Origin: a virus
Virus record (IMG/VR): IMGVR_UViG_3300046558_000178
Location: 2,552-66,551 of that record
Length of the DNA: 64,000 bases
Strand: one strand, 5' to 3'
Part shown: in pieces, positions 4,025 through 13,040 of the stretch
Layout of the letters: every line of letters starts with the position of its first letter
Position numbering within the stretch: the stretch's first letter is position 1
Position numbers and translations under genes: made by a program
Notes under the pieces: model-generated
What the model was told of the DNA's origin: nothing
What the model saw: the letters and a program-made list of their open reading frames with translations, nothing else
Databases searched by the model: none

Positions 4025-4272
4025 GTGACCTCCTTTGCGGCTGCCCGCCTAACCCTGTCCCACGTTTTCTGGTTCATCAGCAGCACGGCGCCGCCGTTCA
4101 GACTGATGACTTGGCCGTCGGGAACGGTCTCCCAGTAGCCGAAGAAATCAGCCATCCACGCATTTGTCTTAGCGACCAGTTCAGGGTCTTGTATCCGCGC
4201 AAACTCAGGGCTGCACTGCATGCGTGGGCGCGCGGGCGAGATCTGGACCTTTGCCCCGAAGATTGAGGTCAT
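4021..4272 (-). CDS. Hypothetical phage protein
   Basis: 83-aa ORF coupled to neighbours. Confidence 0.65.
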   Translation of the reverse strand: MTSIFGAKVQISPARPRMQCSPEFARIQDPELVAKTNAWMADFFGYWETVPDGQVISLNGGAVLLMNQKTWDRVRRAAAKEVT

Positions 4273-4682
4273 GCTGCCCTCCGCTTCGGCGCCGCCGGCA
4301 GGTCCATCCAGGCCACAACCAGCGCCGATTCGATTGGCGTTGCATCGGCGTATCGCCAGACATCACCGTCACGGACGCCGGGCCACACTTCCTCATCCGA
4401 GAGCGCGAGCAGCACCAGGATATCGTCGTCCGGGAGGCGGTCGGCGACAGATGTCCAGCCGGTGGGCACCGAGCTGCGCAAGTCAGCGGTGGTGCCAATG
4501 CCGTCCAGCGCTTCGATTTCTTCCGTGGTCATGCCTATGCAGGCATTCCAGCACGCGGCTAGGCGTCGGGCGTCATCCCTCCTCATGCTAGCGGCGACAA
4601 TCATGCCCTTTGCACTGTTGATGTCGCAAGAATACTGCCAGACGGTCACATGCAGCCGCCCCTGGGTGTGCTGGCCGCTCAT
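4269..4682 (-). CDS. DUF551-like protein
   Basis: DARRLAACWNAC; WTSVADRLP...VVAWMDLPAAP motif; ATG overlaps rdgC stop. Confidence 0.7.
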   Translation of the reverse strand: MSGQHTQGRLHVTVWQYSCDINSAKGMIVAASMRRDDARRLAACWNACIGMTTEEIEALDGIGTTADLRSSVPTGWTSVADRLPDDDILVLLALSDEEVWPGVRDGDVWRYADATPIESALVVAWMDLPAAPKRRAA

Positions 4683-5947
4683 GATGCCGCTCCCGGCGCC
4701 GCCGCCATGTTGCGCACGCCCTTGGTCATCGCCGGCGCAGCGCTGTCCTCGCTTGCTTCTTCCATGTTGACGTAGGCGGCCAGCAGATGCATCTGGCGGT
4801 TGGTGTCGTATGTTGCCGTGCACAAGCTTGTTAAGGCACCCAGGTCGCTTACGCCGAGCTTGGCTGCTTCTGACTTGATCTCAGCACCCAGTTCGGCCAT
4901 GCGGCCAGCGAATTTATCGCCGAGGAGCGTCTGGGCGGCCGTATGCGCCTCGTACATCTTGGCTGCCACTTCCACCGTCCGGCGCGCTTTGCCGACGGTG
5001 CCGCCCAGTGCCAGCACCGTTTCGCCGCGTGTTGCGGGCGCAGGCTTCGCAACCGGTGCCGCGCCGTCCACCTCGCCACCCATCGCCTGCACCACATCAG
5101 CCAGCATCTTCGCCAGCTCGCCGGTCATCAGCGCAAAGTCGCCGTCGAAGCGCTCGTCGTCGTTGCGGGCGCTCTTGTTTTCCGTCAGCACGTCCAGCGC
5201 CCTGATCGACTTGATGGCCAGCGACTCGTCCAGCACAAAGCTGATCTTCGATTCCCAGGTCATCGCCAGGCGCGTGCACTGCTTGCCGGCGGCGATGTGT
5301 CGGCGTACGTCGTCCGCTTCCAGTGTGTGGCGCACGTACTTGACCTGGGCGCGGCTTTCGCCGGTGGCGCGCATGGTCGCATCGCGGTCGACCGTGAAGC
5401 CGGCCGGGGACTCGTCTGCTTGCAGCCATTCGGTCATCACACCCACCGGTGATCGCTGCACGCGCAGGCTTTCCAGCGGCATGCGGTCGACCGCCTTCAG
5501 CAGCAGCTTGATTACTTCATCGGCCTTACCCGGGCTGGCAGCGTCTACGACCAACCAGCCGTTGATCGGGTCGATCCAGACGGCCGTAGTGCTGGCGACG
5601 GAAAACGCCTTCGGCAGCAGTTCATCTGCTACGCGCTCGCGCAGTTCCTTCATGGCCTTCTTGCCGGGCGCGAAGCCTTGCGCTTCTTCCAGCTCGGCGC
5701 CGCGGGCCTTAGCCACCTGGTTGATAACGGTGGCGGGCAGCAGCTTCTTTTCGGTCTGAAGCTGAAGCAGCCATTGGCGGTTGACTACGTGGACCAGGTC
5801 GGCGCCGCGCGGTGCGGCCCAGCCTTGGCGCAACAGTTCGTTGCTGCTGGCGGGCGTGAAGGCGTGCGGCGCCAGGGCGGCGATCATCTGCTCGGCGGAA
5901 AACGCCCAGCCGGCGGGCACGCGGTATATTTGAGCGTTTTTGAACAT
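4679..5947 (-). CDS. rdgC: Recombination-associated protein RdgC with C-terminal extension
   Basis: MFKNAQIYR...EKKLLPATVI...ELLPKAF...FDGDFALMTGEL. Confidence 0.9.
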   Translation of the reverse strand: MFKNAQIYRVPAGWAFSAEQMIAALAPHAFTPASSNELLRQGWAAPRGADLVHVVNRQWLLQLQTEKKLLPATVINQVAKARGAELEEAQGFAPGKKAMKELRERVADELLPKAFSVASTTAVWIDPINGWLVVDAASPGKADEVIKLLLKAVDRMPLESLRVQRSPVGVMTEWLQADESPAGFTVDRDATMRATGESRAQVKYVRHTLEADDVRRHIAAGKQCTRLAMTWESKISFVLDESLAIKSIRALDVLTENKSARNDDERFDGDFALMTGELAKMLADVVQAMGGEVDGAAPVAKPAPATRGETVLALGGTVGKARRTVEVAAKMYEAHTAAQTLLGDKFAGRMAELGAEIKSEAAKLGVSDLGALTSLCTATYDTNRQMHLLAAYVNMEEASEDSAAPAMTKGVRNMAAAPGAAS

Positions 5948-6679: not shown

Positions 6680-7975
6680 TTATTTGGTGGCAGATCTGAT
6701 GGATGGTCCGGTATGGCTGAACATTGCTTTGTAGGAGGAGAGCGCCTGGCTGCGGTCATACCCGCCGACCTCATGCTGGCGCAGGCGCTGGTGGTACCGC
6801 CGCCGGCCGTAGGCGCCGACGGAGACATGGTTTGGCCAGACGACGTAGCCGAGGAAGGGCACGCCGTCGGACACCGGTGCCAGGCGCACCTTTTTCGGAT
6901 GGATGGTCAGACCGTCGGCTGCCAGGCGCTCGACGATTGCGGCACTGATCGCCATCAGCTGCTCGCGGGATTCGCCCACGATCACCATGTCGTCCACGTA
7001 CCGGACGTAGTGGCGAACGCGCAGCACTTCCTTCACCCAATGGTCGAAATCGTTCAAGTAGACGTTTGCGAAAAGCTGGCTGCTCAAGTTTCCGATGGGC
7101 ATCCCCTTGTCCCGGGTGCGCCGATAGACGCTCGTGGCCGGGAATAAGTGATCATGCTCATCGCCCGACCGGAACGAGTCCACCAGGCTCACCAACAGCG
7201 TGCGGATGTCCTGGTCGCCGATGTAGCGCAGGACCCGCGCCTTCAAGAGAGAATGATTCACCGAATAGAAATACTTCGAAATGTCCAGCTGCAATACCCA
7301 CTTCGCATCCCGCGCGCGGGCGAAGCCGGCCACCCGGCGCACCGCAGCGTGCGTGCCGCGGCCCGGCAGGTTGCCGTATGTGTCCGCGATAAAGCGCGGC
7401 TGCCAGATTGGCAGCATGTAGTCGTAAAGCATCCAGTGGACGATTCGGTCCTTCATCGGCGCATCCACGACGTGGCGGAACTTCTTCTCGCGCACCACGA
7501 ACGTCTTGTACGGCCCGAAGGTGTACCGGCGTTCGCGCAGCTGCTGCTGGATGCTGGCAAGGTAGCGGAGTGGATCGTCGCCGAAGCGCTGCACGCGCGG
7601 GCTCTTGGACTTGTTTTTCCTGGCTTTCAGCCAGCAGCCGAACAGGCTGGACAGGTCGGTCATGCGGTGGAACTGTGCTGGCGCTGGGCCGCTTTCCGCT
7701 GCGGCACTCGGAAGCCCCGCAGCGGTCTTCGGTTTGGCGCTGGGCCGTGCTTTCGGGTTTATCCCAGGAGCTGATCGACCAAGAATTGGCTTTCCGTGAG
7801 CGGGCTCAGCGTCTAAGCATATAATTTTTGGGTCAGCGGAAGCCGACATTGTCGTTGGCGTTGGACGGATTCGCGTTGTTGAGCCTGAACACGCCGGCGT
7901 TGTCGCCGTCGTTCCAGTAGCCGCCGCGGATGAGCGCATTGCCGGACCTACCAGACCACCCCCTTCGTTGATCAT
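6680..7975 (-). CDS. DGR reverse transcriptase (start uncertain: 7975 or 7663)
   Basis: KARKNK, KDRIVHW, RGTHAA, LQLDISKYFYSVNH, GMPIGNLSSQLFAN (DGR-type SQ motif), YVRYVDD, FLGY; no maturase or endonuclease domain. Confidence 0.95.
   Translation of the reverse strand: MINEGGGLVGPAMRSSAAATGTTATTPACSGSTTRIRPTPTTMSASADPKIICLDAEPAHGKPILGRSAPGINPKARPSAKPKTAAGLPSAAAESGPAPAQFHRMTDLSSLFGCWLKARKNKSKSPRVQRFGDDPLRYLASIQQQLRERRYTFGPYKTFVVREKKFRHVVDAPMKDRIVHWMLYDYMLPIWQPRFIADTYGNLPGRGTHAAVRRVAGFARARDAKWVLQLDISKYFYSVNHSLLKARVLRYIGDQDIRTLLVSLVDSFRSGDEHDHLFPATSVYRRTRDKGMPIGNLSSQLFANVYLNDFDHWVKEVLRVRHYVRYVDDMVIVGESREQLMAISAAIVERLAADGLTIHPKKVRLAPVSDGVPFLGYVVWPNHVSVGAYGRRRYHQRLRQHEVGGYDRSQALSSYKAMFSHTGPSIRSATK
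7833..7949 (-). repeat. DGR template repeat (TR)
   Basis: 117 nt matching both VRs; nine AAY codons; ends TTCCGCTGACCC (IMH*-like). Confidence 0.95.
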
Positions 7976-8826
7976 GATGCTGCCTTTCCGGCGCGCAGCA
8001 GGCCGCCGACCAGGCGGCCAAGCTCAACGGCTAAGCCAGCGCGATGGTCGAACGCAAGTTTGAGCTTGCTTAGCCGTGGAGCCTGGGTCAGGTAGTGCTT
8101 GAGCAGATCGATGTCGGCCGAGATGGAGTGCAGCACCGCCCGGCGGTCCGCCGCTGTCCCGTAGGCGTAGACGTTGCCCATGACACGTGCCATGCACGCG
8201 CGCACGTTCTCGCCGAAGGTGGCGCGCAGGTCGCGTGGCATCTTGATGATGTCGTGCAGCAGCTGCGTGTCCAGGTCCTGGGCTTGTGTCTTCAGCTTAA
8301 AGCCGGCGCTGTCGGGGTTGGCCAGCATCTGTTTCGTCGCAGCCTGGTTGACCTCACCTCGGGCTCGCAGGTCTGCGATCACTTGCTGAACAATTTTGTC
8401 GGAGACTGCATTGAGCACTGAAGCATTGGCGCCGGCCTGGTCGGAAACGTAAAGCGTGTAGCCTTCGGCGCGGCTGCCGAGGTAGACCACGTACGGAATC
8501 TGGAATTCTTCCACCATGGACCACAGCCGCTTTTTGAAATTCCCGGCGGGGAAGCCCACGCGAATGTGTGGCGCGTCGCTGGTATTGACCAGTTTCAGCT
8601 GGTAGCCCTTGAGGGTATTGAGTGCGTGCGCGGTGCGATCGTAGCCGTGCAGGAAGCGGCCGACTTGCACCAGTACGAGGTGGCCGGGATGCTTCTGCTC
8701 CAGCTGGGCCGAGACGTCGGCCATCGGATCTTCCTGGCCAAGGCCGACCTCGATTCCACGATATGCGCGAATCGAGAACTGGCCCATCTCGGCCTGTGTC
8801 GGCACTTGCGATTCGGTTTTCGGCAT
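7972..8826 (-). CDS. DGR accessory protein: MutS-domain-I-like N-terminus fused to Avd-like helical bundle
   Basis: KHPGHLVLVQVGRFLHGYDRTA...VGFP resembles MutS-I; KMPRDLRATFGENVR...ELGRLVGGLLR resembles Avd; sits between target and TR. Confidence 0.8.
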   Translation of the reverse strand: MPKTESQVPTQAEMGQFSIRAYRGIEVGLGQEDPMADVSAQLEQKHPGHLVLVQVGRFLHGYDRTAHALNTLKGYQLKLVNTSDAPHIRVGFPAGNFKKRLWSMVEEFQIPYVVYLGSRAEGYTLYVSDQAGANASVLNAVSDKIVQQVIADLRARGEVNQAATKQMLANPDSAGFKLKTQAQDLDTQLLHDIIKMPRDLRATFGENVRACMARVMGNVYAYGTAADRRAVLHSISADIDLLKHYLTQAPRLSKLKLAFDHRAGLAVELGRLVGGLLRAGKAAS

Positions 8827-8851
8827 TTTCGTCCTGCCTATTCAATATTGA

Positions 8852-8907
8852 GAGGCCCGGTCACCGCTGCGCAGTGACCGGGAACCAGTGACCTGGGACC
8901 AGAGACC
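8852..8907 (-). other. Post-VR1 heptamer tract and hairpin (DGR target-recognition element)
   Basis: CCCGGTCACTGC-GCA-GCGGTGACCGGG stem-loop at 8856-8882. Confidence 0.8.
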
Positions 8908-9677
8908 TACAGGGGTTTGGTGCAGCGGAAGCCGACAAGGTCGTAGGCGTAGGACGGAGACGCGTGGTCGAGCCTGAACACGCCGGCGTAGTCGCCGTCG
9001 CCCCAGTAGCCGCCGCGGATGAGCGCAGTGCCGGACCAGTTGGCGCCGGCACGAGGCCGCCAGCCCATGCCACGTTCCATGGACGCATACGGCGCCGTGG
9101 CGATCGACGGCGAGTCGGCGGCAAAGGCCTGCGAGATCAGGCCATTGGCGTCGCCCTGGACGTCATCGAAGACCCAGGTAAAGGCGTTGCCTGCAGCGTC
9201 CACCACGGTCTGGTCGTCATCCAGGTAGAAGGCGCGGCGCTCGGAAGGGTCACGTGAAACGAAATCGCCGGCGTACGGTTCATCAACGTCGTCCAGGTCG
9301 AGGCGCAGGCCTTGGAACATGCTGCCCTCGCCGACGATTCCACTGACCCAGTTCGCCCGCTGCAGGAACAAGTTGAACGCCAGCGACAGCGCCTGGGTCT
9401 CGGTGATCAGCGCGAAGCCGGCATCGGCGCAGGCCTGGCGCGCATCGGAGTAGTTGATATCGACCCAGGGCTTGCCGGTGGCGCTTACAACAGCTTTGCC
9501 GTCTGCACCCTCCGAGCACAGGTACTGGCCGGCTTGGAAGGCTGGTACGACAATGCTCGGGCGCGTAACCACGCCTCCGACAATCACGCACGGCAGCGTG
9601 GTTTCGGGCACGGTGACGAACAGGTTTTTCTCGATTTCCGCTACTGCGTGCTGCTCGGTATGGGTTGCTGTGTTCAT
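8907..9677 (-). CDS. DGR target 1, CLec/FGE-sulfatase-fold protein
   Basis: PWVDINYSDARQAC, AGNAFTW, LIRGGYW...VGFRC; VR at C-terminus. Confidence 0.92.
   Translation of the reverse strand: MNTATHTEQHAVAEIEKNLFVTVPETTLPCVIVGGVVTRPSIVVPAFQAGQYLCSEGADGKAVVSATGKPWVDINYSDARQACADAGFALITETQALSLAFNLFLQRANWVSGIVGEGSMFQGLRLDLDDVDEPYAGDFVSRDPSERRAFYLDDDQTVVDAAGNAFTWVFDDVQGDANGLISQAFAADSPSIATAPYASMERGMGWRPRAGANWSGTALIRGGYWGDGDYAGVFRLDHASPSYAYDLVGFRCTKPL
8922..9038 (-). repeat. Variable repeat VR1
   Basis: 12 internal differences from TR (plus one at each edge), all at TR adenines. Confidence 0.95.
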
Positions 9678-10769: not shown

Positions 10770-10818
10770 GGCCGCCGCTGCGCGGTGGCCGGTTACCCGT
10801 GACCTGGGGCCAGAGACC
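10770..10818 (-). other. Post-VR2 heptamer tract and hairpin
   Basis: GGCCACCGC-GCA-GCGGCGGCC at 10770-10790, same spacing from stop codon as at VR1. Confidence 0.75.
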
Positions 10819-11729
10819 TACAGGGTTTTGGTGCAGCGGAAGCCGACAAAGTCGACGGCGTAGGACGGAGTCGCGTAGCCGAGCCTGAACACGCCGGCGA
10901 CGTCGCCGTCGTTCCAGTAGCCGCCGCGGATGAGCGCACCGCCGGACCAGTCGCGGGCCCCGTCAGGGCGCCAGCCCATGCCGAACTGGCCAGAGGCGTA
11001 TGGGGCGACGATCAGGGATGGGGAGTCGTCAGCGAGGCGCGTGCACAGGCCATTGCTGTCGCCCTGGACGTCGTCGGAGGTCCAGGTGTAGATGTTGCCG
11101 GCTAGGCCGTAGACCTTTTCGCCGTTGGTCAGCACGTGCCAGCTGCGTTCTTCGGGATCATCACTCACGTAGTCAGCCGTCTGTGCGCTGCGCACCGTGC
11201 CCTTGTGCAGCCCCTGGAAGACCTTGCCGATGCCGACGGCGCCACCGGTCCAGTTTTCGGCCTGCTGGACTACATGCAGACGGATGGCAAGCTCCTGTGA
11301 CTCGCGCGCCAGCTCGTAGCCGACCGCCGAGCACGCAGCTGCTGCAGCGTTGAAGTTCACGTTCACCCATGGCTTCGCCGAGGCGCTCAGCTGGAGCGCA
11401 CCGTTATCGTCTTTCGACGCGGGGTACTTGGCGTATTTGAAGGCGGGAACGATGCGACCATTCGGCAGCAACGTCTCAGGCACGGTGACGAAGTGCTCGT
11501 CGGAGACCAGGCCCAGGTTGGACATCAGCGAGGGCGATCCGGACACGACGCGCTTCTCGGCGTCGAGAACGATCAGATGCAGGCCGGATGTGGCATGGCG
11601 GAACTTGGTGAAGCCCTCCCAGGCGCTTTCCACGGCCAGGCCGGTGATATTGCGGTCGTTCAGGCGCGCAGTGAAGGTGCGCTCCTCGATCAGTTCCAGT
11701 GCTGCAGGTTGGTTCATCGCTGTCTCCAT
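10818..11729 (-). CDS. DGR target 2, CLec/FGE-sulfatase-fold protein with extra N-terminal domain; first gene after pL
   Basis: Paralog of target 1 (FVTVPET, KPWV, FQGL, LAGNIYTW, LIRGGYW...VGFRC). Confidence 0.92.
   Translation of the reverse strand: METAMNQPAALELIEERTFTARLNDRNITGLAVESAWEGFTKFRHATSGLHLIVLDAEKRVVSGSPSLMSNLGLVSDEHFVTVPETLLPNGRIVPAFKYAKYPASKDDNGALQLSASAKPWVNVNFNAAAAACSAVGYELARESQELAIRLHVVQQAENWTGGAVGIGKVFQGLHKGTVRSAQTADYVSDDPEERSWHVLTNGEKVYGLAGNIYTWTSDDVQGDSNGLCTRLADDSPSLIVAPYASGQFGMGWRPDGARDWSGGALIRGGYWNDGDVAGVFRLGYATPSYAVDFVGFRCTKTL
10833..10949 (-). repeat. Variable repeat VR2
   Basis: 13 internal differences from TR (plus one at each edge), all at TR adenines. Confidence 0.95.
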
Positions 11730-12253: not shown

Positions 12254-12964
12254 TCATATACGATCTGATTCCTTGCGGACTACGCGGCCGACGATGATGC
12301 ATTCTCCATTGCGGCACCGCTTGCGTGAGTACATGCGCTGGTCGGAGTTATCCGAAACCAGCCACCAGTCTCCCTGGTCGCGTACCAGGCGCTTGATCAC
12401 CGCCTCGCCCTCATAGTTGAACGCGTACACGGCGCCATCCTCCATACGCGTGTCAGCCGTGTTCACGATGACATGGTCGCCCTCGTAGAGGTTCGGCTCC
12501 ATGCTTTCGCCTCTCACCGATAGGGCGATGAGCTTCGCAGGGTAGTAGCCGTTACGGTCCACCCAGTACTTCGGCACGCTTTGCCGGCCGCCCTCGCGGT
12601 TATCAGGGGAGGTTTGGAATCCGGTGATGCCGGCTTGCAGCTGCAGCTTCACTTTCTGGATTTGATAGAAACCAGGGTCGCCATCTTCCGCGACCACCAC
12701 GGGGATGTAGTTGGCCAAGCCTGGCCCGACCATGTCGCCCACGCCATCGCGAAGCCAGATGGCATTGCACCCGATCACCTCCTGCGCGCTGAGCAACCCA
12801 TCGCTGGAGATGCCGCGCACCTCCCAGTTGTTCACCGTCTGCGGAGACACATTTAACAATTTGGCGACCGCACTTTGTCCTTCTGCATGGCGCAGCTCGG
12901 CAGCGGCCTGATAGAGGCGCGTCATTTGTGGGTGCATACCAACCCCATTCTCAGTATTTTTCAT
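12254..12964 (-). CDS. cI: CI-like repressor (HTH + S24 peptidase)
   Basis: QSAVAKLLNVSPQTVNNW HTH; VRGESMEP and VIKRL catalytic motifs; start codon approximate. Confidence 0.92.
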   Translation of the reverse strand: MKNTENGVGMHPQMTRLYQAAAELRHAEGQSAVAKLLNVSPQTVNNWEVRGISSDGLLSAQEVIGCNAIWLRDGVGDMVGPGLANYIPVVVAEDGDPGFYQIQKVKLQLQAGITGFQTSPDNREGGRQSVPKYWVDRNGYYPAKLIALSVRGESMEPNLYEGDHVIVNTADTRMEDGAVYAFNYEGEAVIKRLVRDQGDWWLVSDNSDQRMYSRKRCRNGECIIVGRVVRKESDRI

Positions 12965-12985
12965 AGCCTCAATGATCCCTGAACT

Positions 12986-13040
12986 AAACAAAATGTTGTT
13001 AAACATAGTGTTTGCGTTTTTCTTAAACATGGTGTGTAAT
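12986..13040 (+). promoter_or_regulatory. pR/oR: three AAACA-N3-TGTTT-like operators, TTGCGT-17-TGTAAT
   Basis: Sites at 12986-12998, 13001-13013, 13025-13037 between divergent cI and cro. Confidence 0.8.

Follow-up and report, generated by a model that had tools for sequence, protein, structure and literature searches.

A MutS domain I-like module fused to Avd in a phage diversity-generating retroelement

Small MutS-like (MSL) proteins are listed among the accessory proteins of diversity-generating retroelements (DGRs) in reviews and surveys of these systems. MSL genes were found in 16 of 372 DGRs, one of them in Legionella, and they encode proteins of 112-283 amino acids (aa) and always occur together with avd (Wu et al. 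2018, PMC5758913). The same study reports three DGR reverse transcriptases (RTs) with a C-terminal MutS_I motif, and Msl is also named in three Bacteroides DGRs (Macadangdang et al., 10.1101/2024.11.15.621889). Here, we analyze a DGR in a 64,000-nucleotide stretch of viral DNA (the window), which covers positions 2,552 to 66,551 of the IMG/VR record IMGVR_UViG_3300046558_000178, a 66.5-kb virus record rated complete by CheckV. In this DGR, the Msl module is the N-terminal half of the Avd protein and there is no separate gene for it. We refer to the fused gene as msl-avd.

We conclude with high confidence that the C-terminal ~110 aa of the msl-avd protein form a basic Avd-type bundle, which is the sole Avd of the cassette, and that the N-terminal ~100 aa adopt the MutS domain I fold, with the Phe kept and the MutS sequence GDFYE changed to G-[K/R]-F-L-H. 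The same confidence extends to purifying selection on both halves and to mutation of the variable repeats (VRs) of the cassette in nature, at adenines of the template repeat (TR).

Compared with the stand-alone MSL and Msl genes, the locus shares a small MutS-domain-I-like module in a DGR cassette with Avd, a likeness drawn from their published description. Compared with bAvd of BPP-1 (4DWL; ribonucleoprotein 8UB7), it has a similar basic bundle of four helices and ~110 aa, likewise encoded directly ahead of the TR and RT, but msl-avd carries ~170 extra N-terminal residues, comprising a tail, the Msl domain, and a linker helix. With MutS domain I itself (PF01624; residues ~10-115 of E. coli MutS; Taq MutS, 1EWQ), the module has in common the fold and the landmarks HP..L, G-x-F, and G-[FI]-P; it differs at E38, where it has His (or, in a few members, Gln), and at D35, where it has Lys or Arg. 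Finally, as in the three RTs with a MutS_I motif, the module forms one polypeptide with a core DGR protein, which is the RT there and Avd here. As such, msl-avd joins in a natural fusion two modules for which other DGRs have separate genes, and it is not a new kind of system.

A literature search, which did not extend to the supplementary tables of Wu et al., returned no description of an Msl-Avd fusion and no functional test of an MSL protein. Neither "fused" nor "fusion" appears in the main text of Wu et al. 2018 (PMC5758913). Such fusions may nevertheless be among the MSL entries of that study already, because the published size range of 112-283 aa reaches the 280-290 aa typical of the family described below.

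The two halves of the msl-avd protein

The gene and its parts are as follows.

7972..8826, minus strand: msl-avd, an uninterrupted open reading frame (ORF) of 284 aa with at least 356 near-length homologues, both folds recovered
8737..8826, minus strand: N-terminal tail, residues 1-30, with a predicted local distance difference test score (pLDDT) below 50 at residues 1-9 and 16-29
8443..8736, minus strand: Msl domain, residues ~31-128, with the MutS domain I fold and the loop Q54-x-G56-[KR]-F58-L59-H60 in place of MutS G-D-F36-Y-E38
8317..8442, minus strand: linker, residues ~129-170, less conserved, with a long helix (143-169) in the model
7990..8316, minus strand: Avd domain, residues ~171-279, with helices at 171-194, 198-222, 228-247, and 253-279 and an isoelectric point (pI) of 9.84

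The original prediction, made from the letters of the window, had read this ORF as a DGR accessory protein that joins a MutS mismatch-binding-like domain to Avd. The ORF is present at full length on the minus strand, whereas the plus-strand reading of 7972-8826 is closed by many stops, and it contains the strings that had been quoted for it: K45-HPGHLVLVQVGRFLHGYDRTAHAL, IRVGFP (residues 88-93), and, close to the C-terminus, ELGRLVGGLLR. The accompanying remark that some DGRs have MutS-like accessory genes of their own is correct in view of the MSL class of Wu et al. 2018 (PMC5758913).

For the N-terminal half, an AlphaFold2 (AF2) model of residues 28-142 alone reached a pLDDT of 89.4 and a predicted template modeling score (pTM) of 0.82. 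A Foldseek search of the Protein Data Bank (PDB) with this domain-only model gave 41 matches at E<=1e-3, and all 38 among the matches listed are MutS, MSH2, MSH3, or MSH6 (query-normalized TM-score, TMq, 0.65-0.68; root-mean-square deviation, rmsd, 3.1-3.6 Å; ~100 columns; ~20% identity). The highest-ranking viral structures of BFVD belong to giant-virus MutS proteins and to small phage proteins (74-153 aa) annotated as "MutS domain I" or "DNA mismatch repair protein". Small MutS_I proteins also make up 28 of the 30 nearest ESM-Atlas clusters, the best three listed being 101-130 aa long. In addition, PF01624 is matched by 16 of 27 relatives of the protein, with a best E of 9e-5. At the level of the predicted structure, the structural matches confirm the MutS domain I fold of the N-terminal half.

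The register of the contact loop comes from an hhalign comparison of the N-domain profile with six MutS N-termini, those of E. coli and of five genomes that carry the msl-avd prophage family (E 1.4e-4, probability 53%). The alignment pairs HPGHLVLVQVGRFLHGY with HPEILLFYRMGDFYELF and VGFP with AGIP, which places F58 (codon 8653-8655, minus strand) at E. coli MutS F36, H60 (codon 8647-8649, minus strand) at E38, and R57 at D35. In MutS, Phe-X-Glu is the mismatch-contact motif, where F36 stacks on the mismatch and E38 contacts it. Among the 27 relatives, position 58 is Phe in all 27, position 60 is His in 26 and Gln in one, and position 57 is Lys or Arg in 24; Q54, G56, F58, and L59 are invariant. 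The stacking Phe is therefore kept and the Glu exchanged for His, as had been proposed. PDB titles record E. coli MutS mutants E38T, E38Q, and E38A crystallized on a G.T mismatch.

The rest of MutS is missing. In a protein of 284 aa where bAvd is the sole Pfam family at E<=1 and the remainder is linker and bundle, the connector, core, clamp, and ABC ATPase domains are absent, and the msl-avd protein is therefore not a mismatch-repair enzyme. The tail that precedes the Msl domain has invariant residues in the 27 relatives (P9, E13, G24, and G28) despite its low model confidence, and its P-T-x-x-E motif persists in relatives at 35-40% identity. The tail may be a peptide docking motif.

The C-terminal half was matched by each of the Avd profiles: NCBIfam DivGenRetAVD (NF033474; E 1.5e-6, residues 181-277, 28.4 bits against a cut-off of 80), Pfam bAvd (PF22296; E 0.0097, 16.8 bits against a cut-off of 40), and the PHROG family "Avd protein of DGR" (E 3.4e-5). 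All 27 relatives match bAvd, with a best E of 4.3e-6. The full-length AF2 model has a pLDDT of 74, and with it Foldseek recovered bAvd chain 8ub7_C of the BPP-1 particle (target-normalized TM-score, TMt, 0.79; rmsd 2.8) and free Avd 4dwl_B (TMt 0.74), the E values for bAvd chains being 4e-3 to 2e-2 for this two-domain query. The proposed four-helix Avd C-terminus is thus borne out by the modeled structure, with profile matches that all score under the curated cut-offs. A six-frame search of the 66.5-kb record with both Avd models gave a single match, inside the msl-avd ORF, and the fused protein is therefore the only Avd of the cassette. By analogy with BPP-1, the Avd half would form a pentameric barrel that binds the N-terminal extension of the RT and the spacer RNA and is needed for cDNA synthesis.

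Family, cassette, and activity

A near-length search at E<=1e-3 returned at least 356 proteins from phages and prophages, mainly those of Betaproteobacteria, and all 120 among the matches listed are 258-297 aa long. The family is compact, with 40 cluster representatives at 50% identity, 17 of them at E<=1e-30. We collected 83 loci, 58 viral and 25 bacterial; the bacterial ones are mostly from Betaproteobacteria (Duganella, at 82% identity, Undibacterium, Pseudoduganella, Thauera, Aromatoleum, and Gallionella), together with one Lysobacteraceae metagenome-assembled genome. A tblastn search of 50,697 GenBank phage records gave no match. In 25 of 27 loci checked, the first ATG opens an ORF of 280-290 aa, and the other two loci have frameshifted copies from a single assembly. 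With at least 356 homologues of the same length and full coverage, a single ORF in 25 of 27 loci, and contigs from independent public runs covering the gene, a sequencing or assembly artefact as the origin of the fusion can be set aside with near certainty.

The two frameshifted copies (L081 and L084) come from an Undibacterium arcticum assembly, where their frames, counted from the first ATG, are only 71 and 82 aa long. An intact protein of 284 aa is known from the same species, which suggests that the copies reflect either frameshift errors of long-read assembly or real decay.

Mean pairwise identity is 68.9% for Msl and 71.5% for Avd, compared with 52.6% for the linker (tail and linker lie in the range of 50-53%). 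The median ratio of nonsynonymous to synonymous divergence (dN/dS, NG86 estimates for 11 ungapped genes, with dS near saturation) is 0.18 for Msl, 0.22 for Avd, 0.41 for the linker, and 0.29 for the tail. The loop pattern was matched in 79 of the 83 loci, reading F-L-H in 75 and F-L-Q in four. Public names for family members disagree: "hypothetical protein", "DNA mismatch repair protein MutS" (UniRef, one member), "four helix bundle protein" (NCBI, another), and "polyhydroxyalkanoate synthesis regulator phasin".

No natural split form of msl-avd was found, and no close stand-alone or shorter relatives of residues 28-142, in searches that were word-limited. A profile of ten N-domains matched 26 proteins, which are fragments or shorter members of the msl-avd family and P0157, a protein already in the query alignment; word-limited locus scans with P0157, P0131, P0125, and P0128 found nothing. 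The only stand-alone relative came from phmmer. It is a 132-aa protein with 29% identity and with Cys-X2-Cys motifs ahead of the Msl-like part, a segment that looks zinc-ribbon-like by eye. A locus scan with a smaller alignment gave three loci, including a fused 271-aa gene and a copy truncated by an inserted element.

These last two loci deserve a brief description. The distant fused gene of 271 aa (L093, 883-2753) follows a VR-bearing target gene in a 2.8-kb contig. After it comes a TR-like stretch, which continues not into an RT but into an ORF for an N6/N4 DNA methylase (PF01555, E 2.6e-24). The truncated copy (L094, 1039-1871) stops after ~108 residues, and the ORF next to it resembles, by eye, an IS607-like fusion of a MerR-type helix-turn-helix (HTH) with a serine recombinase; an insertion element seems to have interrupted this copy of msl-avd.

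Within the window, all cassette genes are on the minus strand in the order target gene 2, target gene 1, msl-avd, TR, spacer, and RT.

10818..11729, minus strand: target gene 2, 303 aa, with VR2 at 10827-10948
~10770-10790, minus strand: GC-rich hairpin with a GCA loop, similar to the next, ~25 nucleotides (nt) behind target gene 2
8907..9677, minus strand: target gene 1, 256 aa, with a weak FGE-sulfatase/C-type-lectin-like match and VR1 at 8916-9037
8856..8882, minus strand: GC-rich hairpin with a 12-bp stem (including one G-T pair) and a GCA loop, 25 nt past the stop of target gene 1
7827..7948, minus strand: TR, beginning 24 nt past the msl-avd stop codon (repeat family D1, TR/VR alignment)
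7664..7826, minus strand: TR-to-RT spacer, ~160 nt, read from the sequence and comparable to the Sp RNA by position only
6680..7663, minus strand: DGR RT (RVT_1, E 1e-24), with the start inferred at M105 (MTDLSS...)

The arrangement fits the proposal of a DGR accessory protein, since msl-avd lies between a variable target gene and the TR and RT, and since an RT match follows it in 80 of the 83 related loci. The exceptions are one decayed locus and two contig ends, and two further loci have only short RT fragments. In viral locus L034 (4998-6692), where there is no RT match, the msl-avd frame reads on to 564 aa and is followed by unrelated genes, which looks like a decayed cassette. A target gene is upstream in 56 of the 58 viral loci, and the other two start at a contig end.

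The Sp RNA segment to which the spacer corresponds in position is known from the BPP-1 DGR (10.1101/2023.10.23.563531). We rejected an RT start at 7975, given by the longest listed ORF and overlapping the msl-avd stop codon: the first 104 codons of that ORF are the TR and spacer in another frame. Instead, the start was placed at 7663 (M105), because tblastn matches in related loci begin at M105. Given the long ORF from 7975, gene callers probably over-extend the RT. RVT_1 is the sole Pfam family reported for the RT at E<=1, and there is no C-terminal MutS_I extension.

The comparison of repeats shows that the DGR is active. TR and VR1 differ at 14 TR adenines and at one other position, and the same holds for TR and VR2 (14 and one); the lone non-adenine difference sits at the 3' end, where differences of the initiation of mutagenic homing (IMH) type are expected. 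Three phage contigs have a TR that is identical or 99% identical, and their VRs depart from those of the window, and also among themselves, at 11-17 sites, every one of which is a TR adenine. Since these near-identical phages vary in their VRs only at TR-adenine sites, the cassette is active and mutates its own VRs at TR adenines in nature. In four public rhizosphere metagenome runs, 11 of the 12 listed VR1 variant places are on TR-adenine sites (28 of 122 positions are such sites), where the data are Logan contigs mapped at 85% likeness and where strain mixture and cross-mapping of the second VR are possible.

Three further genes surround the DGR region.

4269-4823, minus strand: DUF551 protein, flanking the DGR region
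4679-5947, minus strand: RdgC homologue, 422 aa (PF04381, E 7e-104), two genes downstream of the RT
12254-13030, minus strand: cI/LexA-type repressor (Peptidase_S24, E 1.6e-20) with an N-terminal HTH

The repressor and the DUF551 protein fit a temperate phage. In 21 of the 83 related loci, RdgC is matched at a distance of no more than ~5 kb from the cassette, where it comes right behind the RT or is placed upstream of the targets; its presence may be plain phage synteny, or RdgC may be a recombination-related partner.

Possible roles of the Msl domain

The role that we favor, although we hold it only tentatively and put its chance somewhat below even, is that several copies of Msl bind the mismatch-dense heteroduplex of cDNA and VR and block host MutS. 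Because Msl is fused to Avd, several copies of it would be carried on each RT-Avd particle. There, the Msl domain would bind the irregular or mismatched duplex that the adenine-mutagenized cDNA forms with the parental VR strand, and it would occupy the lesion without calling MutL. Such behavior is conceivable because the mismatch-contacting domain is present, while the clamp, connector, and ATPase of MutS are absent. Host MutS would consequently be kept from reverting the heteroduplex, and the yield of retrohoming would rise. The replacement of D35 and E38 by K/R57 and H60 would fit tighter binding without discrimination or repair signaling. The original prediction had likewise suggested that the fusion could bind this heteroduplex, and that it might thereby shield it from host mismatch repair or guide integration, which is plausible.

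Several results are in line with this reading. Knockout of mutS in Bacteroides raised VR mutagenesis 5- to 10-fold in a DGR without Msl and supports all-or-nothing repair of the heteroduplex (10.1101/2024.11.15.621889), and engineered E. coli DGR systems use dominant-negative MutL to suppress mismatch repair. The host genomes of the msl-avd family have a canonical MutS in five of five cases. The MutS_I motif on three RTs and the restriction of MSL genes to avd-bearing DGRs mean that, in the published data, the module recurs physically or genetically tied to RT-Avd. As for the geometry, a pentamer-forming protein artificially fused at the C-terminus of Avd left reverse transcription and adenine misincorporation unaffected (10.1101/2023.10.23.563531). 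Both termini of an up-down four-helix bundle should be at the same end, and together with the tolerated C-terminal fusion this makes an N-terminal appendage plausible without disturbance of the core. A complex prediction for the RT and the Msl domain scored 0.00 against a mark of 0.32 and is uninformative either way.

A number of observations weigh against this reading, some of them at the level of the domain assignments on which it builds. The msl-avd protein of the window has no PF01624 match at E<=1, and none was found in six frames at E<=1e-3; the family profile, searched against PDB sequences, matched neither MutS nor Avd at E<=10 and gave only chance-level matches (SIGIRR, an S-layer protein; E 0.24-1). 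With E. coli MutS as the sole counterpart, hhalign arrived at this register too, but at a probability of only 6.5%, and all Avd profile scores fall under the curated cut-offs. At the level of function, Glu at position 60 was found in none of the 79 loci and none of the 140 proteins that match the loop pattern, so the Phe-X-Glu motif was not encountered, and mismatch specificity is not to be assumed because this Glu is absent in every member examined. Domain I of full MutS acts together with the clamp domain, which the msl-avd protein lacks. With a pI of 7.16 and a charge of +0.2, the Msl domain encoded in the window is close to neutral, compared with a family mean of pI 9.15 and charge +3.4. 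In E. coli, deletion of mutS left repair of an 18-nt-insertion reporter unchanged, and the authors state that it is not a MutS substrate (PMC12875486).

A different possibility, which we regard as unlikely, is that Msl acts during reverse transcription, where it would grip the template:primer or the growing RNA:cDNA duplex, which is mispaired wherever an adenine was misread, and so aid extension by the RT beyond the mismatches or hold the product. The fusion to Avd here and the MutS_I motif on the C-termini of three RTs (Wu et al. 2018, PMC5758913) both put the module at the polymerase, and the conserved loop, with F58 in 27 of 27 relatives, would suit this role as well. However, the bRT-Avd complex of BPP-1 misincorporates and extends without Msl (10.1101/2023.10.23.563531), and most DGRs have no MSL gene, as the count of 16 in 372 shows. 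Moreover, MutS domain I is known as a reader of DNA:DNA mismatches and not as a binder of RNA:DNA hybrids.

Less probable still is a role in recognition of the target site or of an intermediate, in which Msl would bind distorted DNA at the VR end (IMH, hairpin or cruciform, fork, or D-loop) and guide integration. The GC-rich hairpins behind both target genes occupy the same position as the retrohoming hairpin/cruciform of the BPP-1 DGR, and the DGRs of Bordetella and Legionella require GC-rich repeats of this kind to retrohome efficiently (Wu et al. 2018, PMC5758913). The cassette also has two targets to find, in separate genes that lie at distances of up to 3 kb from the TR. Yet hairpin-dependent targeting in BPP-1 works without Msl, and the predicted folds are weak: the DNA fold of the 99-nt stretch 8827-8925 on the target gene 1 side is marginally better than shuffles (z -1.95), and the stretch on the VR2 side is no better than shuffles (z +0.63). 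Furthermore, recognition of branched DNA is not a known property of domain I in the evidence assembled here.

Finally, the N-terminal domain might have no role with nucleic acids and serve as a structural or protein-binding appendage, for example in stabilizing oligomers or docking host or phage proteins. The loss of the catalytic-site Glu in all members, the lack of basic charge in the window's own domain, and the resemblance of the conserved disordered tail (with its invariant P9, E13, G24, and G28) to a peptide-binding motif speak for such an appendage. We nonetheless consider it improbable, given that conservation is highest in the very loop with which MutS contacts the mismatch, and given the low dN/dS of Msl (0.18) and the family-mean charge of +3.4.

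Meaning for mutagenic retrohoming

The fusion bears on how mutagenic retrohoming installs the cDNA in the target gene and how the heavily mismatched intermediate escapes mismatch repair. MSL genes have been catalogued since 2018, and the fusion physically ties the MutS-like module to the RT-Avd particle. In betaproteobacterial prophages, where the fusion is common, it offers a handle on MSL function in a compact three-gene system (target, msl-avd, and RT), with residue-level predictions at F58, H60, and K/R57. There is also a possible use in engineered DGR mutagenesis, for which published systems suppress mismatch repair by dominant-negative MutL. Should the Msl half have no effect, the finding would be a variant of domain architecture only.

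In its strongest form, the shielding of the heteroduplex proposed above would make Msl-Avd a built-in anti-mismatch-repair device. Several ATPase-less MutS "reader heads" on the Avd barrel would clamp the densely mismatched heteroduplex through the retuned G-K/R-F-L-H loop, keeping it out of reach of host MutS until the new allele has been fixed by replication. We regard this form as possible but doubtful. If it is true, the occurrence of the same module as a stand-alone protein, fused to the RT, and fused to Avd would be a Rosetta-stone hint that all MSL proteins work within the RT-Avd particle.

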